From an uncultured Gammaproteobacteria bacterium (GTDB lineage: Bacteria > Pseudomonadota > Gammaproteobacteria > Eutrophobiales > Eutrophobiaceae), in NCBI GenBank assembly GCA_938084745.1, contig CALKEZ010000022.1, positions 24,140 to 88,139 of the forward strand: DNA of 64,000 nt, given 5' to 3'. Position 1 is the stretch's first letter. Each line of letters starts with the position of its first letter. The notes beneath the pieces were generated by a model. The model did no database searches, was not told where the DNA came from, and saw nothing but the letters and a program-made list of their open reading frames with translations. The translations under genes and the position numbers were made by a program. Positions 40,710 through 64,000 of this stretch are shown here, piece by piece.

Positions 40710-40783
40710 TGGAGCCCCGAGAGGGAATCGAACCCCCAATAGGTGATTACAAATCACCGGTTATACCATTTAACTATCGGGGC
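40710..40783 (-). tRNA. tRNA-Thr (anticodon UGU)
   Basis: The reverse complement folds as a cloverleaf. Acceptor stem GCCCCGA/TCGGGGC, D stem GTTA/TAAC, anticodon stem GGTGA/TCACC with loop TTTGTAA, T arm GGGGG-TTCGATT-CCCTC, and an encoded CCA. Confidence 0.85.
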
Positions 40784-54698: not shown

Positions 54699-55283
54699 AT
54701 GCACAAATTCAGCTTTTTAATCAGCCTGTCTCTCCTGCTTGGCCTGAGTCCTCAGACCTATAGCAGTGGCACCATGAATGAAGATGAAGCACGCAATGTC
54801 GACCGCGTTGATGTTTCAAGTGAAGCAGATCGACAACGCCTTTCTGTCACCGCGGGTTTATTAGCCGATTATGAGATCGCCGGAAAAAAATTAATTGCCA
54901 ACCTGAATGACGAAACATCAAAAGCGGAAGATGTCAGTAATCAGGCCAGTAATTTATTACATTTGTCTGAAGATATTATAAAGAGTGCTCAGTACAGACT
55001 GCCTCAGTGTGATGAATACCTGGCAAAGACCGTTGCAGTTAAAGCTGTTTTAAAAGATATGTCGCATGATGCCCTGGAAAAAGACTACCATCATGATGGT
55101 GCGCTTCCGAAAGCGCCGGGCGAGTGCTACCACACCAAAGACTTATTTGTTCATCCGGCAACCGTTATTATTTTAACGCGCGATGATCCTTCATTAAACA
55201 AGGCCACCAGAGCCTCGATAAACGCTGAAATAAGTGAAGTTCTGGCGCACACTGAAATAGTCAGACAGCTTGTGGTTTACTAA
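54699..55283 (+). CDS. hypothetical secreted helical protein
   Basis: Signal peptide MHKFSFLISLSLLLGLSPQTYS. There are two Cys residues and no recognised family. Confidence 0.5.
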   Translation: MHKFSFLISLSLLLGLSPQTYSSGTMNEDEARNVDRVDVSSEADRQRLSVTAGLLADYEIAGKKLIANLNDETSKAEDVSNQASNLLHLSEDIIKSAQYRLPQCDEYLAKTVAVKAVLKDMSHDALEKDYHHDGALPKAPGECYHTKDLFVHPATVIILTRDDPSLNKATRASINAEISEVLAHTEIVRQLVVY

Positions 55284-55598
55284 ATCGATGAATATAGAAT
55301 AAAAACACCTGCCAAATCCAGCCTCGAACACCACTACTGGAATAAATCGTCATTCCTGTTCATATGAGTATGAATGGAACAAGTCATTACTCAATATGTC
55401 ATAATAATCAAGTTATCAAGTGTTTAAAACCGGGGTTTAAAGACTTGATAAGCGACTATTAAATATCGTTTCAGAGCAACAAGCCTATCTGAATATTGAT
55501 AAGGTCTACATTGCCGTTAAAAATTTTAGAACTGATTTGCTGGTAAAAAATAGAGATAGCCGGCGGGTTTCTTCTTTCACAAGCTAGGGAAGTTATTG

Positions 55599-56279
55599 AT
55601 GACCGGACAGTTTCACAGTAATTGCAGTATAAAAATTATCTTTTTATCTTCATTGCTTGCTTTTCTAGCAGCGTGCAACACAGTGCCAACCAAAGAAAAT
55701 GACAAGAGTACTCCGGAACCTGATAAAAACGCCGCGACTGATTCAGCACCCGACACTCAAGACGCCTACACAAAAAATAGCAGCCAGGCTACGCCAACAA
55801 AAAATTCAGCACCAACCGAGCCTACTACAACAAACAATTCCTCCAGCCTGACTAGTGAAGAACAGACTCAGCAACTTGACCAGCAACTGGATGAGCGGTT
55901 TGCGGACTTTGATAGATTGTTGTTGCGCGAACATGAGTTTTTAAAAGAGCAGCAAAATGAACAAGGTGCGCCGCAAAGTGCGACTAGTGGTGGAGGCGGA
56001 GGTAGTGTTGGAAGTGGCCTTGATGGAATAGATGATTATGGCCCACTTGCCGATGAGGGCACGGCAGCAAATGGCGACCCGCCTGGCACTCAACAGAATG
56101 GTGGTGGAAATGCATTTCCAAGCGACAATACCAATATTAATATTCCTCCCGATCTGGTAAACAGTAAAGGTGATGATGTAATTGCAAGACAGTTACGTGA
56201 AGCTGCAATGAAAGAAAAAGATCCCGAACTCAGGGAAAAACTCTGGAATGAATATAGAAAATATAAAAGTGGTATATAG
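55599..56279 (+). CDS. lipoprotein, low-complexity linker plus a conserved-looking C-terminal helix; first gene of the 55.6-64 kb operon
   Basis: Lipobox LAFLAAC|NT, a T/S/P/N/G-rich middle, and the C-terminus DDVIARQLREAAMKEKDPELREKLWNEYRKYK. Confidence 0.6.
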   Translation: MTGQFHSNCSIKIIFLSSLLAFLAACNTVPTKENDKSTPEPDKNAATDSAPDTQDAYTKNSSQATPTKNSAPTEPTTTNNSSSLTSEEQTQQLDQQLDERFADFDRLLLREHEFLKEQQNEQGAPQSATSGGGGGSVGSGLDGIDDYGPLADEGTAANGDPPGTQQNGGGNAFPSDNTNINIPPDLVNSKGDDVIARQLREAAMKEKDPELREKLWNEYRKYKSGI

Positions 56280-56296
56280 GAGAAGGGTGATACGGC

Positions 56297-57463
56297 ATGC
56301 AAAAAGTTAATAATATATTCGTCGTTGGCATAATTATATTTCTCACTGCTTGTAACTCAACCACGATCAGGAGTACGAATACAGACCCGGTACTTATTAC
56401 CGGCGCCGCTATTCCGGAAGCATTATTACTTGATGTCGGTATTAATATATTTGATCCCGATATTACGGACAGTAAAACTAAAGATATCAATGGTTATACA
56501 AAGATCATCGAAGCCGAAGCACGTTACATACCTTTTAAACTTATGGAAACGATTCAGGGCAGTGGCAATTGGGGCGTAGTTCGTCTCATCCCGGATAAAC
56601 AAAGTGAAATGGATGTTTGGGTCGACGGCAAGATCATTAAATCCGATGGCGCAAGCCTGGAGCTGGACATTACAGTGAGTGATTCCGGTAATAACAAATG
56701 GTATAGCAAACGTTACAAACAGGAAGCGAGCAAATACGCTTATGACAGTAACTCAAACAGGATCGAACCCTTTCAGAATTTATACGATCAGGTTGCCAAC
56801 GATATGTTGCAGTATTACAAGAAGCTGGATACTGACAAAATTACAAAAATTCGTACTATTACTAAATTACAATTTGCCAAACGCTTCTCTCCGGAAGCCT
56901 TTAGCGAATATATTGAAACGGACAATAAAGGTCGTTTATTCATTAAACGGTTACCGGCAAAAAACGACCCCCTGCTACAGCGTATAGAATCCATACGCGA
57001 ACGAGATCATTTGTTTGTTGATACCTTGCAGGAATATTACGCTAACTTTGCGCGGCAGATGGAAGAACCCTATCACGAGTGGCGTCGTGCTTATTACGAA
57101 GAAGGCGAGGCATTACGTGCAGTCAACAATCAGGCCGCTACCCGCCTGGTTGGTGGTGTAGTGGCCGTGTTAGCCGGCATACTTGCTCAGGGCAGCAGTT
57201 CCTCCGTTGCTCAAGCCGCGGGACAGGTCGGTATAATTGCAGGCGGTGCTGCAGTTGTTAGCGGATTTAATAAACGAGAGGAAGCCAAGATTCATAAAGA
57301 AGCGTTACAGGAAATTTCGGCCTCACTGGATGCGGAAATAAAACCACATACAGTTAATCTCGAAGAGCGCAGAGTTACCCTTACTGGTTCAGTTAATGAT
57401 CAATATACACAATGGCGTGAAGTGTTACGTGAGATATACAAGACTGAAACCGGTTCAATTTAA
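56297..57463 (+). CDS. lipoprotein with a C-terminal Gly/Ala-rich (glycine-zipper-like) hydrophobic segment
   Basis: Lipobox IIFLTAC|NS. The hydrophobic segment is RLVGGVVAVLAGILAQGSSSSVAQAAGQVGIIAGGAAVVSGF. The gap to the upstream gene is 17 nt. Confidence 0.6.
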   Translation: MQKVNNIFVVGIIIFLTACNSTTIRSTNTDPVLITGAAIPEALLLDVGINIFDPDITDSKTKDINGYTKIIEAEARYIPFKLMETIQGSGNWGVVRLIPDKQSEMDVWVDGKIIKSDGASLELDITVSDSGNNKWYSKRYKQEASKYAYDSNSNRIEPFQNLYDQVANDMLQYYKKLDTDKITKIRTITKLQFAKRFSPEAFSEYIETDNKGRLFIKRLPAKNDPLLQRIESIRERDHLFVDTLQEYYANFARQMEEPYHEWRRAYYEEGEALRAVNNQAATRLVGGVVAVLAGILAQGSSSSVAQAAGQVGIIAGGAAVVSGFNKREEAKIHKEALQEISASLDAEIKPHTVNLEERRVTLTGSVNDQYTQWREVLREIYKTETGSI

Positions 57464-57480
57464 CGCTATCATGCATTGCT

Positions 57481-59046
57481 ATGCGCACGAAAAATGATTC
57501 CGAAGACGGTTTTAAGGAAATAAAAGCTGTTCCATTTAATCAGGATGGTGAAACGTCAGCAGCTGCGGTAAACGTAAACACTCTCAGGTATAAAACGCCG
57601 GGACTTATCTTTGGCCTTGCTGCGCTTTTAATCGGAATCATTGTTGTTGTCTTTTTTTTACCTGATTGGGTAAAGAAAAATAATTCTGCTGCATCAAAAA
57701 ACCTGCCGAAGAGTACTACGGTTAGTTCAATACCGTCTGTATCAGAACCCTCATCTTCAGCTCTGCCCTCCCCACCTGATACAGCAATTAAATCACCAGC
57801 CGAAGTAGCCCGTGATGTGGAGCTACGAAAAGAAGCACAAAACCATCTGCAAGATATCCTCGAAAAACAGAATACGCTTAAACAAAATAATGCCCAAATA
57901 TGGTCAGCTGAAAAATACGCCGCCGGACAGAACCATGCTGCCGAAGGTGATCAATTTTATAATCAACAGCAATTTTTACAGGCCAATACAGCCTATAAAA
58001 ACGCTCTGCTTATCTTTGATGATCTGGTTGACCAGATCGATATTCTCTACCATGAAAAGATTGAGCAAGGCCAACAGGCTCTCGACAGCGGTGAATCAAT
58101 GCAGGCGTTGAGTGCATTTGAAATGGCATCTTTATTTACGGACGAATCTCTTCTGGCGGCAAAGGGACTGCAACGTGCCCGGAAACTGGATGAGGTATTT
58201 ATGCATATTGAGCACGGCAATGAGGCACTGAACGAGGGTCGCTTAAACGATGCTAAAAATGCTTTTCAGGCGGCATTGGAACTGGATAATGAGACCAAAG
58301 TTGCCCGACAAAAACTTGAAGAGACTAATAATTTACTCGCTAACAATCAATTTAACGCACATATGACAGCAGGTTACGCTGCACTGGAGCAACAACGCTA
58401 TGGCACGGCCAGTAATGAATTTAAGCATGCCTTAAAAATTCAACCGGCGTCCACGTCTGCTAAAACAGCATTGCAACAAACCAAACATCAGGCAATAACA
58501 CTTGAGATTAGTAATACGTTGCAACAAGCTACGGATAATGAAAAAAATGAGCAATGGCAAAAAGCAATTGAACTGTATGACTATGCACTGAAACTTGAGA
58601 ACAACCTTACCCAGGCACAAATCGGGAAACAGCGTGCACAACGCCAATTATTGACTAGGCAGAAACTAGACCAGATATTGTCACAACCAGAAAGACTAAG
58701 TAATAAAAATATACATGCCGAGGCAACTGCCTATTACACGAATACCATTAAACTTGATAATCAAGGCCCCATACTTACCAAACAGCTCAATGAACTTAAA
58801 ACATTACTGGAAGTAAGTGCAACACCGGTAACGATACGACTTGAGTCAGACAATGCGACTAATGTCACCATCTATAAGGTCGGCAAGATGGGGCTCTTTA
58901 AATCAACAGAATTGAGTTTACGGCCGGGGAAGTATGTTGCCGTTGGCAAACGCGATGGTTATAGAGACATCCGTGTTGAATTTCTAGTATCACAAAACAC
59001 AATGGAAACGGTTATACGAATCGCTGCCAATGAAAAAATTAACTAG
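57481..59046 (+). CDS. bitopic protein: short cytoplasmic N-terminus, TM helix, long TPR-like helical region, C-terminal PEGA-like beta domain
   Basis: TM helix GLIFGLAALLIGIIVVVFFL. Repeated A/L/Q/N-rich helical pairs (e.g. NDAKNAFQAALELDNETKVARQKLEE). The C-terminus is VTIRLESDNATNVTIYKVG...LRPGKYVAVGKRDGYRDIRVEFLV. Confidence 0.62.
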   Translation: MRTKNDSEDGFKEIKAVPFNQDGETSAAAVNVNTLRYKTPGLIFGLAALLIGIIVVVFFLPDWVKKNNSAASKNLPKSTTVSSIPSVSEPSSSALPSPPDTAIKSPAEVARDVELRKEAQNHLQDILEKQNTLKQNNAQIWSAEKYAAGQNHAAEGDQFYNQQQFLQANTAYKNALLIFDDLVDQIDILYHEKIEQGQQALDSGESMQALSAFEMASLFTDESLLAAKGLQRARKLDEVFMHIEHGNEALNEGRLNDAKNAFQAALELDNETKVARQKLEETNNLLANNQFNAHMTAGYAALEQQRYGTASNEFKHALKIQPASTSAKTALQQTKHQAITLEISNTLQQATDNEKNEQWQKAIELYDYALKLENNLTQAQIGKQRAQRQLLTRQKLDQILSQPERLSNKNIHAEATAYYTNTIKLDNQGPILTKQLNELKTLLEVSATPVTIRLESDNATNVTIYKVGKMGLFKSTELSLRPGKYVAVGKRDGYRDIRVEFLVSQNTMETVIRIAANEKIN

Positions 59047-59060
59047 CTTTATTTCATCTT

Positions 59061-61103
59061 ATGCAACATATTGAACCTGTCAATTTTGAGCCTCCCGGTC
59101 CCCATAAAAAAATTGCTAGAAAATCTCGCTCCTTACTACTCACGGGCCCCCTGTTTTTTTTATTTATTTTACTGGTGGGTATAACCGGATTCCTGTTCAC
59201 GAGTAAATCAGTAACCATTATTACTCAACCGGCTAATGCCGAGATCGCAATAAACACATTACTGAAACTTACCTTTTCAGAGCGCCACTTGCTAAGAAAA
59301 GGAAACTATGAAATTGACGTTAATGCGCAGGGTTATTACCCTCTAAATGAAATATTAGAAGTCGGTGATAAACAAAACCAGGAAATAGCATATGTTCTGA
59401 AACCACTACCAGGACATATGCAAGTTGCTGTTGCCGATACCCAGGGTGAAGCAACCATTTTTCTGGATGGCGTTGAACAAGGTTTTGCCCCGATGAAACT
59501 TAACAATATCGAGGCCGGCTCGCATCGCATTACCATTGAAGCGGAACGTTATTTTCCATATGAACAGGAGATAGAAATTGAAGGGAAAGATACACTCCAG
59601 AATTTAAACGTGGAACTTGTTCCTGCCTGGGCAAAAATAGAATTTGATTCTGATCCTGCCGCAGCCGAGATTATCATTGATGATGAAGCGCTGGCAAAGA
59701 CGCCGTCAACAGTTGAGCTGTTGCAGGGCAAGCACAATGTCAGGGTTAAAAAATCCGGCTTTAAGGATTGGCAAAAAACCATTAATGTTATCGCTAGCCA
59801 AGCCCAAACCTATACCGATATTAAACTGAAGCCCGCCGATGCAACCCTGTACGTTGACTCTGAACCGGCCGGAGCCAATGTTACTGTCGATGGTAATTAT
59901 GCTGGTAAAACACCATTGGAAATTGCTATCAATCCAGGCAAAACAAGTTTGGTACGCCTCTATAAACAAGGCTACACCGCCAAGATCAGTAACGTTAAAT
60001 TGGCAGCCGGAGAAAACAAGCATCTGAACATAACAATGTCTTCTGAACTCGTTGACGTTGCTTTTAATCTTGTTCCTGCAGATGCAAGACTGTATATCAA
60101 TAATAAGCTCATGCAACTGTCGGGTAAAACTTTAGCGTTACCAACAACGCAACAATCTATTGCTGTGCGCAAAGAAGGTTACGTTGACTACCAAACAACC
60201 ATCACGCCCATAGAAGGTATTCCCCAACAGGTCAACGTAACGCTCAAGTCCCTGCAACAACAAAAGCTGGAAAATATTAAACCCGTAATTACGAGCAATG
60301 CCGGGCAACAATTAAAACTGTTTTACCCGTATGGATTTACTATGGGGGCTTCACGTCGCGAGCCTGGACGTAGAGCAAACGAGGCAATACAAACAGTTGA
60401 ATTGAAACGACCCTTCTATCTTGGTATCACTGAAGTCACAAATGATGAGTTTCGTTTATTCAAAGCCGAACACGATTCCGGTGTAATACAAGGCCATAGC
60501 ATGAACAATGGCAAACAACCTGTTGCTAATGTTAGCTGGGAAAGTGCCGCCGCTTACTGCAACTGGTTGAGTCGAAAAGATTCTTTGCAGCCGTTTTATA
60601 TGATCTCCAATAATAAGATTACCAGTATTGATGCAAGTGCTAATGGTTACCGCTTGCCCAGTGAAGCTGAATGGGCCTGGGCTGCCAGGAGCACTAATAA
60701 AACTGATTTATTAAAATTTCCGTGGGGAGATAAACTGCCACCAACTAAAAAAAGTGGTAATTACGCCGACAGTAGTGCCGCCGGATTTTTAGGGAAAACT
60801 ATTAGCAACTATAATGATGGATATGCTGTTGCAGCACCTGTAGCCAGCTTCGCCGCTAATCACCATGGACTCTATGACATGGGTGGAAACGTTGCAGAAT
60901 GGGTGCATGACTATTACTCTGTACAATCAATTCGCGATGAAAAAAGGGTCGATCCACTTGGGCCTGTCAAAGGAGAATTTCATGTTATCCGCGGTGCTTC
61001 ATGGGCTCATGGTACTATTACAGAATTACGCTTATCGTATAGAGACTACACTGACAAACCCCGGGAAGATGTCGGTTTTCGTATTGCCCGATATCTGGAA
61101 TAA
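59061..61103 (+). CDS. bitopic PEGA-repeat protein with a C-terminal FGE/SUMF1-like domain lacking the catalytic Cys pair
   Basis: TM helix LLLTGPLFFLFILLVGITGFLF. About five PEGA-type repeats (e.g. SEPAGANVTVDGNYAGKTPLE, SDPAAAEIIIDDEALAKTPST). FGE-like region: YRLPSEAEWAWAAR, GNVAEWVHD and VIRGASWAHGTITELRLSYRDY. Confidence 0.8.
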   Translation: MQHIEPVNFEPPGPHKKIARKSRSLLLTGPLFFLFILLVGITGFLFTSKSVTIITQPANAEIAINTLLKLTFSERHLLRKGNYEIDVNAQGYYPLNEILEVGDKQNQEIAYVLKPLPGHMQVAVADTQGEATIFLDGVEQGFAPMKLNNIEAGSHRITIEAERYFPYEQEIEIEGKDTLQNLNVELVPAWAKIEFDSDPAAAEIIIDDEALAKTPSTVELLQGKHNVRVKKSGFKDWQKTINVIASQAQTYTDIKLKPADATLYVDSEPAGANVTVDGNYAGKTPLEIAINPGKTSLVRLYKQGYTAKISNVKLAAGENKHLNITMSSELVDVAFNLVPADARLYINNKLMQLSGKTLALPTTQQSIAVRKEGYVDYQTTITPIEGIPQQVNVTLKSLQQQKLENIKPVITSNAGQQLKLFYPYGFTMGASRREPGRRANEAIQTVELKRPFYLGITEVTNDEFRLFKAEHDSGVIQGHSMNNGKQPVANVSWESAAAYCNWLSRKDSLQPFYMISNNKITSIDASANGYRLPSEAEWAWAARSTNKTDLLKFPWGDKLPPTKKSGNYADSSAAGFLGKTISNYNDGYAVAAPVASFAANHHGLYDMGGNVAEWVHDYYSVQSIRDEKRVDPLGPVKGEFHVIRGASWAHGTITELRLSYRDYTDKPREDVGFRIARYLE

Positions 61104-61120
61104 AAAGATCGGATTTCGAT

Positions 61121-61336
61121 ATGAATAGAACGCTTTTATTTTTATTATTATTTATCTCTAGCTTTGCAATGGCAGAACAAGACGTTGAAGAAGACACCAT
61201 GACAAGTAATGAACAGCAAGCGGAAACAGCAACGACCACTTCATCGACACCAGCAACGGTGAAAACGCCGGACTCATTCGACCCGACTGAAACCCTTTCT
61301 CAGGACGTGCCCGCTGCCTTCCCTGTAGACATATAA
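61121..61336 (+). CDS. small secreted acidic/Thr-rich protein
   Basis: 71 aa with signal peptide MNRTLLFLLLFISSFAMA. It sits between the FGE-like and MotA-like genes, with gaps of 17 and 12 nt. Confidence 0.5.
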   Translation: MNRTLLFLLLFISSFAMAEQDVEEDTMTSNEQQAETATTTSSTPATVKTPDSFDPTETLSQDVPAAFPVDI

Positions 61337-61348
61337 CGATATACCCAT

Positions 61349-62149
61349 ATGAATAAACACAACCCACTGTCTGATTTTCTATATCAAGTAATCGCTTTAT
61401 TTGTGGCATTGATTATTGTGCACAGTCTTTATGTTGCAGTGATTCGTCCCAATGCTGATGCTTTACTGGAACAGCAGGCCACTCAGCAAGCGGCCGGGGA
61501 AACTTATGAAATTGAACGTTCCATGTATATTGTCCTTAAAGACTTTGAACAAGAAGCCTGTTTTATTCTGGCATTATGGGTATTTGCGATCATGGCACTG
61601 AAGGCCAAAAAAATACTGAGAGAACGCGCATTACTATCACAGACTTTAATTAATATAAGTCCAGGTACCAGCCTTTTGCCGGAAGATACACGCGAATACT
61701 CGAGGCCGATACAAAACCTGGCGGAAAATGAACAAGAGTACCTGTTACCCCGAGCCTTACTTTCGGGTTTGCAGCGCTTCGGCTCGACCCAGAACATTCA
61801 GGATGTCGCCACGACGATTAAAGATATTTGTGAACACGAATCCGAGCGCCTCGATTCAGAACTGTCGATGGTTCGATATATCATATGGGCCATACCCTCT
61901 ATCGGCTTTATTGGTACTGTCCGCGGTATAGGAGAAGCACTGGGCCAGGCACACCGGGCCGTTGAAGGTGATATCCTGGGCGTCACATTGAGTTTGGGTG
62001 TTGCGTTTAATTCAACATTTGTCGCGTTGATCATCAGTATTTTTATTATGTTCTTAATGCATCAATTGCAACTATTGCAAGAAAGACTGGTGCTCGATAC
62101 GCAGCGCTATTGTGATATGAATCTGCTTCGTCATCTTAAAACGCTGTAA
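61349..62149 (+). CDS. MotA/TolQ/ExbB-family proton-channel protein
   Basis: An N-terminal TM helix, a cytoplasmic helical region, then the family signature region IWAIPSIGFIGTVRGIGEALG and a further TM helix FVALIISIFIMFLMH. Confidence 0.8.
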   Translation: MNKHNPLSDFLYQVIALFVALIIVHSLYVAVIRPNADALLEQQATQQAAGETYEIERSMYIVLKDFEQEACFILALWVFAIMALKAKKILRERALLSQTLINISPGTSLLPEDTREYSRPIQNLAENEQEYLLPRALLSGLQRFGSTQNIQDVATTIKDICEHESERLDSELSMVRYIIWAIPSIGFIGTVRGIGEALGQAHRAVEGDILGVTLSLGVAFNSTFVALIISIFIMFLMHQLQLLQERLVLDTQRYCDMNLLRHLKTL

Positions 62150-62164
62150 AGAATTTTCTGAATT

Positions 62165-63457
62165 ATGTCATTTACTATTCTTGATCTTAATGACACGAAT
62201 ATCCGAGTCGGTAGCGGTAGCCAAATACTGCTCAATAGTCCCGGTTATGCCGTCATTAAAGATAACAAGATCGCCTTTGGTGAACCGGCGGCGAAACTAA
62301 CACGCATTTATCCACGCAGTACGCATGATGATTTTTGGTATCGCCTTGGTCAGGAGAGCATCCAATCCATATCCAGCCAAATTCGACATAATGCCGACCT
62401 GGCTTATATGCAATTGGCCGAAATTTATGAACAAACCGGAAAACCATCCAGTTGGTTGATCGCGGTACCATCAAGCTTCACGCAGGAACAACTGGGGTTA
62501 CTGCTGGGACTTTTAAAAGCAGCGTCTTTTCAGGACGTTAAACTTATCGATAGCGCATTACTCGCATCAACCCATGCCTTAAGTGAAGGTGAGTATTTGC
62601 ATCTGGATATACAGTTACACCAATCTGTACTCACACGTCTTGAAAGTGGTAACAAGCATAAAGTAATTTCAACAGAGGTGTTGCCAGATGTTGGAATACT
62701 GAATATATATGAACATTGTGCAAAATTGATCAGTCATGAATTTATTAATCAATCACGCTTTGACCCACATCACAATGCGGAAACGGAACAACTACTCTTC
62801 GACAAAATACCCGACTGCCTGAAAAAGCTAACGCACTCCTCGATAAGTAAAGTTGATATCCAGTACCACGCACAATCTCATAGTGCCAACATCAGTCGCG
62901 AAGCAATACTGGAAAAAATATCACCACTTTATGACATTATTTATAAAACTATTGCTGATTCTGACCAATTATTATTAAGTCATCGTTTTACTAATTTGCC
63001 TGAATTTTCTGATCGTGTTAGCAATACCAATATACTTGATGAATTTGCCTTGTTCACATCGGCTAAAGACTATAGTCATTTTTTACGTGACACGGAACCT
63101 GATGCAAATTATTTATCTGAATTACCCTCGTTAGCAACAGCAGAAAAACCGGTATCTTTTGCTTTAGAAAATACTGAACAAACAGATATCACCCATATCT
63201 TGATCGATAATACGGCCCACTTACTCGATGGACATGATTGTTTTTTTACCGCCGGGCACACTATTGAAAAAGCGCTAAGCGAGAATAGCCATTACTCTGT
63301 TCATTTCAGTAACGGTTACTATTGTATACAACCGGAAAATAATGCCCGCGTATCTCTAAACGACGAAGTCATTAAGCAACGGGTACAGCTCAGTATAGGA
63401 GACAGAATAAAAACAACAGCTACCAAGACCTATTCAACCTTGATCAAGGTGAAATAA
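62165..63457 (+). CDS. cytoplasmic Hsp70/actin-fold (DnaK NBD-like) protein with a possible degenerate FHA-like C-terminus
   Basis: ILDLNDTNIRVG...IAFGEPAAKLTRIYPRSTHDDFWYRLG parallels the DnaK GIDLGTTNS...LVGQPAKRQAVTNPQNT...KRLIG. LIAVPSSFTQEQLGLLLGLLKAASFQDVKLIDSALLAS parallels [37 protein letters not shown]. The C-terminus is YCIQPENNARVSLNDEVI...LSIGDRI. Confidence 0.55.
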   Translation: MSFTILDLNDTNIRVGSGSQILLNSPGYAVIKDNKIAFGEPAAKLTRIYPRSTHDDFWYRLGQESIQSISSQIRHNADLAYMQLAEIYEQTGKPSSWLIAVPSSFTQEQLGLLLGLLKAASFQDVKLIDSALLASTHALSEGEYLHLDIQLHQSVLTRLESGNKHKVISTEVLPDVGILNIYEHCAKLISHEFINQSRFDPHHNAETEQLLFDKIPDCLKKLTHSSISKVDIQYHAQSHSANISREAILEKISPLYDIIYKTIADSDQLLLSHRFTNLPEFSDRVSNTNILDEFALFTSAKDYSHFLRDTEPDANYLSELPSLATAEKPVSFALENTEQTDITHILIDNTAHLLDGHDCFFTAGHTIEKALSENSHYSVHFSNGYYCIQPENNARVSLNDEVIKQRVQLSIGDRIKTTATKTYSTLIKVK

Positions 63458-63460
63458 AAA

Positions 63461-64000
63461 ATGGCCCGCAACCGGCGCCAACTTACGCCGTTTAGTCTGT
63501 CATTTCTGGATATTATGTCGTGTGGTTTTGGTGCTGCAGTATTGTTGTTTCTAATCATCAAGCACAATATCGATAGTGGTGTACCATCGCCACAAAATAC
63601 TCGCAGCCCGGACCTTCAATCTGAAATATCATTGCTGGAGGATGAAATAAAATCAGGCGAAAAAAATCTTGTTGAAATAAAAAATACTGTCGATGAAATT
63701 GAGCAAGAGATCGTCATCACTCAGGGGCTTGCCCGAAAAGTCACTGAGGAAATAGAAGAGCTCAATGGGCGTCAAAATGAATTAAAGGCAAGCAGTGACG
63801 ACTCGGAACTTGCTGCCCTCAAGAATGAACTCATCAGACTTGAACAACAGAAAAATATCCTCGCAAAAAAACTGGATGAACGCGGTGAGGCATCGCGCAG
63901 GTTCGCGGGAGATGGTGACCGCGCCTATGTCACCGGATTGAAAATGAACGGCAAACGCTTATTGGTATTGGTCGACAGCTCTGCCAGCATGCTCGATGAA
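63461..64000 (+). CDS. ExbD/TolR-like TM helix + coiled coil + vWA domain protein (3' end beyond the window)
   Basis: Own translation: MARNRRQLTPFSLSFLDIMSCGFGAAVLLFLII..., then about 110 aa of E/K/L-rich heptads, then GKRLLVLVDSSASMLDE (the vWA beta1 strand plus a DxSxS MIDAS motif). There is no stop before position 64000. Confidence 0.65.
   Translation, partial: MARNRRQLTPFSLSFLDIMSCGFGAAVLLFLIIKHNIDSGVPSPQNTRSPDLQSEISLLEDEIKSGEKNLVEIKNTVDEIEQEIVITQGLARKVTEEIEELNGRQNELKASSDDSELAALKNELIRLEQQKNILAKKLDERGEASRRFAGDGDRAYVTGLKMNGKRLLVLVDSSASMLDE

Follow-up and report, generated by a model that had tools for sequence, protein, structure and literature searches.

The stretch analyzed here (the window) comprises 64,000 nucleotides (nt) of contig CALKEZ010000022.1 (positions 24,140 to 88,139, assembly GCA_938084745.1) from an uncultured gammaproteobacterium. 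Its last part carries the first eight genes, here called g01 to g08, of an operon for a MotA/TolQ/ExbB-family channel subunit, two membrane-tethered von Willebrand factor A (vWA) proteins, and a set of envelope proteins. A preliminary description, made from the letters of the window, had placed eight plus-strand open reading frames (ORFs) here, separated by spacers of 3-17 nt and preceded by a gap of 315 nt. The ORF listing reproduced these coordinates and this layout. The spacers between g01 and g08 are 17, 17, 14, 17, 12, 15, and 3 nt, and the ORF before the operon ends at 55283, which leaves the 315-nt gap to g01.

The same description had proposed a transcription unit of at least eight genes that runs off the window. 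The unit does leave the window. Contig L003 is identical to window positions 61703-64000 (2298/2298), and is therefore the continuation of the same sequence. It adds four same-strand genes and then a convergent gene. The multi-gene unit thus stands, with its size corrected: the operon consists of 12 genes, g01-g08 from the window and g09-g12 on L003, closed by the convergent gene. The four added genes encode a vWA paralogue of g08, two further lipoproteins, and an M48 peptidase. Spacers between genes are tiny or the genes overlap, which fits co-translation. The GC content of the operon is 0.41-0.44, the same as in the remainder of the window. The features are listed below, in window coordinates unless L003 is named, with lengths in amino acids (aa) and transmembrane abbreviated as TM.

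55284..55598, no strand: intergenic gap of 315 nt, presumed promoter region
55596/55599-56279, plus: g01, lipoprotein (226/227 aa) with lipobox LAAC, a long, acidic linker of low complexity, and a C-terminal helix that is invariant, DDVIARQLREAAMKEKDPELREKLWNEYRKYK
56297..57463, plus: g02, lipoprotein (388 aa) with a lipobox, an N-terminal alpha/beta domain, a helical hairpin, and a small C-terminal domain
57481..59046, plus: g03, bitopic inner-membrane protein (521 aa) with a 40-aa cytoplasmic tail, a TM segment, TPR (TPR_2, E = 8.6e-10), and a C-terminal PEGA-like domain
59061..61103, plus: g04, bitopic protein (680 aa) with one TM segment, five PEGA repeats (E = 1.8e-56, 5 stretches), and an FGE-sulfatase-like domain (E = 9.5e-44)
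61121..61336, plus: g05, small acidic secreted protein (71 aa) with a signal-peptide-like N-terminus; D+E 12 against K+R 2
61349..62149, plus: g06, MotA/TolQ/ExbB-family channel subunit (266 aa), presumed to form a pentameric ring (PF01618 MotA_ExbB, E = 7.3e-14)
62165..63457, plus: g07, cytoplasmic protein (430 aa) with a nucleotide-binding fold of the Hsp70 type (AlphaFold2 and Foldseek), followed by an FHA-like beta domain at the C-terminus
63461..64000, plus: g08, N-terminal 180 aa of 364 aa (full length at L003:1759-2853); a trans-pore-type helix with Asp17, a coiled coil, and a vWA domain (VWA_2) with a metal-ion-dependent adhesion site (MIDAS)
L003:2863-3855, same strand: g09, second TM-coiled-coil-vWA protein (330 aa), 9 nt after g08 (VWA_2, 20.6 bits)
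L003:3852-4478, same strand: g10, lipoprotein (208 aa) with a lipobox, overlapping g09 by 4 nt
L003:4491-5147, same strand: g11, lipoprotein (218 aa) with a lipobox
L003:5147-5830, same strand: g12, M48 peptidase (227 aa) with HExxH, overlapping g11 by 1 nt (PF01435, E = 2.6e-18)

Synteny and neighborhood counts given here rest on the best 80 loci, from species-level genomes. The channel subunit g06 is the most conserved gene of the cluster, with 65-92% identity across loci by tblastn. In the hhalign alignment with Escherichia coli TolQ, residues 154-255 of the g06 family correspond to TolQ 109-210 (E = 1e-4). T190 of g06 pairs with TolQ T145, and T223 with TolQ T178. These two threonines and P183 are invariant in 81/81 orthologues.

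By hhalign, the proteins g08 and g09 are paralogues of each other (probability 99.4%, E = 1e-21). They are present at 74/80 and 71/80 loci, respectively, and each has one N-terminal hydrophobic/TM segment. The helix motif is FSLSFLDIMSCGFG in g08 and SFLDIITCGFGA in g09. The helix Asp is invariant in both: D17 of g08 in 74/74 orthologues and D16 of g09 in 71/71. The MIDAS motif DxSxS is also invariant in both proteins; D172, S174, and S176 of g08 are kept in 74/74 orthologues. By eye, the Asp position and the motif of the g08/g09 helix agree with VPLLDVL of TolR, over a segment too short to be significant. The motor logic of a MotA-like channel with an ExbD/TolR-like helix, as first proposed, is supported. 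The vWA domain assigned to the last gene of the window was found again on full-length g08, with 27.3 bits for VWA_2 against the Pfam cut-off of 27. No member of the ExbD, TolR, MotB, or OmpA families was found among the 12 operon products with Pfam and NCBIfam.

A class of motors with this core was predicted in silico in 2025, with Idiomarina loihiensis as the seed (PMC12204202; Mol Biol Evol 2025, msaf138; Fig. 4c-d). These TolQ-like/trans-pore-helix (TPH)-vWA motors are encoded by clusters without tolR/exbD, and their vWA proteins, mostly in heterologous pairs, bear a TolR/ExbD-like trans-pore helix with a conserved Asp (PMC12204202). AlphaFold3 places the vWA helices inside the TolQ-like pentamer, beside the Thr ring, and the class occurs mainly in Proteobacteria and Verrucomicrobia (PMC12204202). 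The present locus, also from Proteobacteria, has a TolQ/ExbB/MotA-family gene, no tolR/exbD/motB, an adjacent heterologous pair of TM-tethered vWA proteins, the conserved helix Asp (74/74 and 71/71), and the Thr ring of the channel (81/81). As judged from these sequence features, it is a member of the class as described, the Idiomarina seed being compared by description. The label "unrecognised type" in the preliminary description is therefore not accurate, as the core, a TolQ-like gene without tolR/exbD and paired TM-tethered vWA proteins, matches the class predicted in 2025.

What distinguishes the locus is its accessory genes. They include four lipoproteins and, in many genomes, a TPR-TonB_C protein, all absent from the text of PMC12204202. 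Nor does that text name the genes for the PEGA-FGE, TPR-PEGA, and Hsp70/FHA proteins, the small secreted protein, or the M48 peptidase. Searches of the literature for the complete cluster returned only this paper, and for the core alone; neither a description of the full accessory set nor a phenotype was found, and the paper itself reports no phenotypes. The cluster is not described in PMC7159879 (vWA conflict systems) or PMC12505986 (MotAB evolution). As far as we found in the literature, the accessory set of 11-13 genes around this motor is undescribed.

The structure of g07 was predicted with AlphaFold2 from an alignment of 56 sequences, with a predicted local distance difference test (pLDDT) value of 91. 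Foldseek against PDB matched the model to the nucleotide-binding domains of Hsp70, DnaK, and BiP at E = 1e-17. The TM-scores against isolated nucleotide-binding domains were 0.63-0.68, with a root-mean-square deviation of ~4 A. The earlier call of an Hsp70/actin fold for this 430-aa protein is thus reproduced. Pfam gave no match on g07 itself. Many g07 homologues carry a C-terminal FHA domain (PF00498), and the family comprises 1226 clusters at 50% identity (E<=1e-30). g07 has neither a TM/hydrophobic segment nor a signal peptide. It is considered to be cytoplasmic, because it has no hydrophobic segment. In our reading of the alignment, the family consensus shows ELND, DIQLH, and LLLSHR at the places of the Gly-rich motifs of Hsp70. 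We take the Hsp70 equivalents at these positions to be DLGTT, DLGGG, and VGG. From its sequence, g07 may not be an ATPase. A canonical Hsp70 chaperone was considered for g07 and rejected, as the motifs are degenerate, the C-terminus is FHA-like, and there is no substrate-binding domain.

The remaining products are envelope proteins. The two lipoproteins heading the operon had been recognized in the preliminary description, and their lipoboxes are kept in 53/63 (g01) and 54/64 (g02) orthologues. The lipoboxes of g10 and g11 are kept in 61/68 and 67/67 orthologues. The residue at +2 is never Asp. By the sorting rule of E. coli, a lipoprotein without Asp at +2 goes to the outer membrane. Therefore, g01, g02, g10, and g11 are predicted to be localized at the outer membrane. 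The g01 protein is disordered apart from its C-terminal helix and is conserved only in the C-terminal ~35 aa; no family in Pfam or NCBIfam matched it.

The AlphaFold2 model of g02 has a pLDDT of 73 overall and about 90 for residues 40-220. Its long helical hairpin bears a hydrophobic Gly-rich tip at residues about 280-325, and the hairpin could be membrane-inserting. No Foldseek match of this model reached E<=1e-3; the TolB N-terminal domain (E = 0.01) and LptE came closest, a resemblance that is a weak lead from the model. Residues 164-375, which cover the hairpin and the Gly-rich tip, gave a weak PADLOC match to dynamin-like LeoBC (E = 2e-4), and this match is probably compositional. PDB sequence searches with g02, g07, g08, and g11 gave nothing useful, and NCBIfam gave nothing above any cut-off on the products.

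The TPR region and the PEGA-like C-terminus proposed for the third protein were reproduced with TPR_2 and hhalign. The C-terminal 70 aa of g03 match PEGA repeat 1 of g04 with a probability of 90% (E = 1.5e-6). The hydrophobic segment of g03 is single, at residues 37-66. In g04, the roughly five PEGA repeats and the FGE-like domain were recovered with Pfam as predicted. The FGE-like domain matches FGE enzymes and PorK in PDB alike, at E = 2e-16 to 2e-15, and PvdO much more weakly, at E = 6.5e-8. It has no special affinity to PorK, because FGE enzymes and PorK match equally. From knowledge of human SUMF1, we take the loop RGASWAHGTITE to be the place of the FGE cysteine pair. Across 72 orthologues, Cys is never among the commonest residues at any position of this loop. 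The FGE-like domain of g04 is, by its sequence, probably a non-catalytic scaffold. Its identification as a catalytic FGE was rejected on the lack of a Cys pair in the loop across these orthologues. The small protein g05 has the motif F-D/N-P-S/T-E..S.D...AFPVDI at its extreme C-terminus, and small ORFs at the same position elsewhere have it in common. With these parts, the reading of the operon as one unit across the cytoplasm, inner membrane, periplasm, and outer membrane is borne out.

The scan of one genome per species in a collection of 185,579 species gave at least 599 candidate stretches, of which at least 531 encode a relative. Gammaproteobacteria account for all of the best 80 loci (Porticoccaceae, Cellvibrionales, Pseudomonadales, Thiotrichaceae, and others). 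By tblastn with the 12 products on these loci, g01-g11 keep their order and strand in practically all loci of sufficient length. The check on gene order suggested in the preliminary description thus came out in favor of conservation, with g01-g11 collinear across ~80 species-level genomes. Next to g06, the identities across loci are 47-82% for g09, 40-77% for g08, 36-84% for g02, 38-69% for g04, and 22-64% for g07. At >=70% identity, relatives of the MotA-like protein g06 number in the thousands. Among cultured bacteria, Elongatibacter sediminis (Wenzhouxiangellaceae) holds a complete 13-gene version. The window sequence recurs in many marine, estuary, and sediment metagenomes, and the g07 product has identical copies on eight metagenome contigs. 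The operon is surrounded by housekeeping genes (SpoT, RecG, AcrB, BirA, and CoaX). Among marine Gammaproteobacteria of plankton and sediment, the cluster is a core-like locus, present in single copy and conserved vertically.

The M48 peptidase is linked at most loci, and its position varies. It is found downstream, divergent upstream, or between g04 and g06. It lies upstream on the opposite strand at loci L018-L020, L024, L025, L030, and L035, and between g04 and g06 at L021:6586 and L022:3576. In Porticoccaceae it is a longer form of 475 aa (L068:15560-16987). The shifting position and strand suggest a functional linkage without a fixed operon position. Between the PEGA-FGE gene and the MotA-like gene, loci L019-L021, L030, L031, and L035 carry an additional 2-4 kb; the M48 gene falls between these two genes at L021 and L022. 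L031 also has ~1.4 kb of extra sequence between g06 and g07.

A secreted protein with TPR_12 and a TonB_C-like domain, about 465-570 aa in length, is encoded directly 5' of g01 on the same strand at 41/80 loci, as found by clustering of flanking ORFs. Examples are L082:2358-3755 (plus) and L088:7083-8789 (plus). TonB_C was found in 22/24 members of this protein, with the best E of 6e-7. The window clade has only a TPR-only protein of 207 aa, convergent downstream (L003:5884-6507, minus), and Pfam found no TonB_C in the window or L003. The absence of TonB noted in the preliminary description is thus true for the window, but does not extend to the 41 related loci with this upstream gene.

It is fairly likely that the locus encodes a TolQ-like/trans-pore-helix-vWA motor, ion-driven and placed in the inner membrane, together with dedicated envelope partners. 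We infer its assembly, its coupling to the proton-motive force (PMF), its partners, and its output as follows. Five copies of g06 would surround a heterodimer of g08 and g09, in the 5:2 stoichiometry. The N-terminal helices of g08 and g09 would each set the invariant Asp inside the ring, near the two invariant Thr residues of g06, and proton flow through this Asp/Thr site would turn or pull the dimer. The coiled coils of g08 and g09, ~100 residues long, would carry two MIDAS-competent vWA heads across the periplasm. There, the heads may bind acidic ligands on partners encoded in the operon. Candidates are the acidic C-terminus of g05, the lipoproteins predicted at the outer membrane (g01, g02, g10, and g11), and the putative scaffolds anchored in the inner membrane, g03 (TPR-PEGA) and g04 (five PEGA repeats and an inactive FGE-like domain). 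PMF energy would thereby be delivered to a complex proximal to the outer membrane. g07 might be a cytoplasmic regulator or anchor of the motor, and the M48 peptidase g12 may process or clear periplasmic components. Our best guess for the output is maintenance of the envelope or outer membrane, over motility or defense, because the locus is deeply and vertically conserved, has housekeeping neighbors, and is without effector or cargo genes.

Several points weigh against this reading. The hhalign probability of g06 against TolQ is only 55%, and searches of all PDB chains with g06, as a single sequence and as a profile, gave no match to a solved structure. The VWA_2 score of g09 is under the Pfam cut-off for vWA. 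The match of the g08/g09 profiles to E. coli TolR by hhalign covers only seven residues (LSFLDII/VPLLDVL, E = 0.59), a segment too short for statistics. As we read the alignment, g07 lacks the Gly-rich motifs with which Hsp70 binds phosphate. Both the 5:2 stoichiometry and the placement of the helices within the ring are carried over from the 2025 in silico work on another species. The presumed link to its Idiomarina seed is one of description. For the ligand of the vWA heads and the output of the motor there are only candidates. Finally, metatranscriptome contigs 100% identical to g01-g08 were found in four RNA runs, and one of them bridges the g01/g02 junction. They are weak evidence of expression of the operon; the RNA support is very thin (depth 1-6 on assembled contigs, with DNA carry-over possible) and too sparse to define a transcript.

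The preliminary description had found no canonical component of Ton, Tol-Pal, Mot, type IX secretion system (T9SS), Zorya, or Bat, and searches of the products with Pfam, NCBIfam, and PADLOC agree. With Tol-Pal and Ton, the locus shares the channel subunit family, the two pore threonines, an Asp-bearing helix partner, and the logic of coupling inner-membrane PMF to outer-membrane partners. In related genomes it also shares the TonB_C-like protein, and the N-domain of g02 is weakly similar to the TolB N-domain and LptE. In contrast to these systems, there is no TolR/ExbD periplasmic domain, no TolA/TonB-type SHLS helix, no TolB, and no Pal, and the axle itself carries a periplasm-spanning coiled coil and vWA heads. 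None of TolR, TolA, TolB, and Pal was detected among the 12 products. ExbD is also absent from them, and there is no His in the TM segments of g03, g04, g08, and g09. As for MotAB/PomAB, no OmpA/MotB family was found in the products, and no flagellar gene was seen among the window neighbors examined.

Like the present locus, the Agl-Glt gliding machinery of Myxococcus unites within a single trans-envelope system a TolQR-like motor, TPR proteins, and outer-membrane lipoproteins with a vWA protein (CglB) and an actin-fold partner in the cytoplasm (MreB). Its vWA protein is, however, an outer-membrane adhesin and not a motor axle. No Glt homologues were detected here, and the taxonomic range and the gene set are different.

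Alternatively, the locus could encode a machine for secretion or surface motility on the logic of T9SS and gliding. The g06 ring with g08/g09 would then drive an outer-membrane-proximal ring of g04 and lipoproteins, as GldLM/PorLM drive GldKN/PorKN, and would export or move an adhesin. Both systems have a dimeric axle, here predicted, reaching far into the periplasm beside an FGE-fold protein without catalytic function, and GldK is the best NCBIfam match of the g04 FGE-like domain (E = 1e-33), with PorK chains at E = 2e-15. The g04 domain is without the FGE cysteines, and to our knowledge the same is true of PorK/GldK. Moreover, vWA adhesins are reported to function in the gliding of Myxococcus (PMC9946355). 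The GldK score of g04 (TIGR03525) is, however, 117 bits against a cut-off of 350, and true FGEs match the domain equally. The parallel with GldK/PorK drawn in the preliminary description therefore holds as an analogy, not as a specific affinity. Furthermore, g04 is TM-anchored with five PEGA repeats and no lipobox, so it is not a lipoprotein, and GldL/PorL were not detected as PF01618-type proteins. No GldL, GldM, or GldN match was obtained, and SprA/Sov, PorV, and cargo-type genes were not detected in the cluster. Clustering of flanking ORFs found no secretin or large outer-membrane barrel gene conserved beside it. The hosts are planktonic and sediment Gammaproteobacteria such as Porticoccaceae, and we know of no gliders in such lineages. 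We consider this alternative unlikely.

Another improbable explanation does without a motor that transduces force. In it, the MotA-like protein would serve as a membrane partner for proton conduction or signaling, and the vWA proteins and g07 would form a chaperone-like or stress-sensing envelope complex, in spirit similar to Bat/MoxR-vWA systems. TPR proteins and paired, membrane-anchored vWA proteins are hallmarks of Bat-type operons, and the cluster does contain an Hsp70-fold protein and a peptidase. However, neither MoxR AAA+ nor DUF58 was detected among the 12 products with Pfam and NCBIfam. An invariant Asp within the TM helix, together with the invariant pore Thr residues, marks ion-coupled 5:2 motors and not Bat proteins, and no gene of the cluster is more strongly conserved than g06.

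Anti-phage defense of the Zorya type, with a MotAB-like 5:2 sensor and effectors, is highly improbable: 5:2 motors have already been recruited to defense in Zorya, with which the locus would share a non-flagellar 5:2 motor with an unusual extension, and vWA, FHA, and Hsp70-like parts occur in conflict systems (PMC7159879), but neither ZorC/D-like effectors nor a gene for a nuclease or another effector are present, PADLOC on the eight window products returned no defense family (only coiled-coil noise on g08 and the weak LeoBC match on g02), and gene order and content are kept across at least 80 species with MotA-like identities of 65-92%, which is not the pattern of patchy mobile defense islands. 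A mobile or defense island was likewise rejected on the native GC, the housekeeping context, and the deep synteny.

Returning to the TolQ-like/trans-pore-helix-vWA motor, a wider proposal can be made, tentatively and with slightly more doubt than belief. The cluster may be a self-contained trans-envelope system on par with Tol-Pal and Ton. It would combine a proton-driven 5:2 motor, a vWA-tipped axle directly gripping its own complex of outer-membrane lipoproteins, an inactive, PorK-like FGE domain carried on a PEGA stalk as the scaffold of this complex, and control from the cytoplasm by a degenerate Hsp70/FHA protein. Across hundreds of marine Gammaproteobacteria, it would perform a task in the envelope that has yet to be assigned to any machine.

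Ion-driven 5:2 motors with a known job are a handful: flagellar stators, Ton, Tol, GldLM/PorLM, Agl, and Zorya. The TPH-vWA class has so far been seen in silico only. The present analysis adds that this motor travels with a fixed set of partners, in clusters of 11-13 genes covering all envelope layers, and that at least 531 candidate stretches of the species-level genome collection encode a relative. Since E. sediminis is cultured, genetics and cryo-electron tomography are feasible. The output, once found, would add a new energized envelope process, and would also reveal how a vWA/MIDAS head can act as the business end of a rotary motor.

A few observations concern the transcription signals and the neighborhood of the operon. 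A sigma-70-like site with 9/12 matches lies at 55496-55524 in the upstream gap, and the count of promoter-like sites there is not above the expectation from shuffled sequences. No terminator-like site was found 3' of g12, and the counts of the terminator scan equal the shuffle expectation. Rfam and tRNA scans of the window found only a tRNA-Thr, far upstream of the operon.

Directly upstream of the operon, window:54699-55283 (plus) encodes a secreted protein of 194 aa without a family match. Another same-strand neighbor, window:53991-54578 (plus), encodes a homologue of EipA, envelope integrity protein A (E = 9e-70). A separate FHA protein of 294 aa is encoded at window:47540-48424 (plus). About 10 kb upstream, window:43566-45368 (minus) encodes a 600-aa protein with vWA (E = 3.5e-21) and FHA (E = 8.6e-16) domains. 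No kinase or phosphatase was seen near these FHA genes among the neighbors checked. Further upstream, window:38365-40667 (minus) contains two adjacent genes whose products have a Cds6_C NTF2-like C-terminus. The domain joined to it is a YkuD L,D-transpeptidase in one product, whereas the second product carries TPR repeats. After this pair and beyond the tRNA-Thr (40710-40783), a SPOR-domain protein is encoded, and the group is cell-wall-related.

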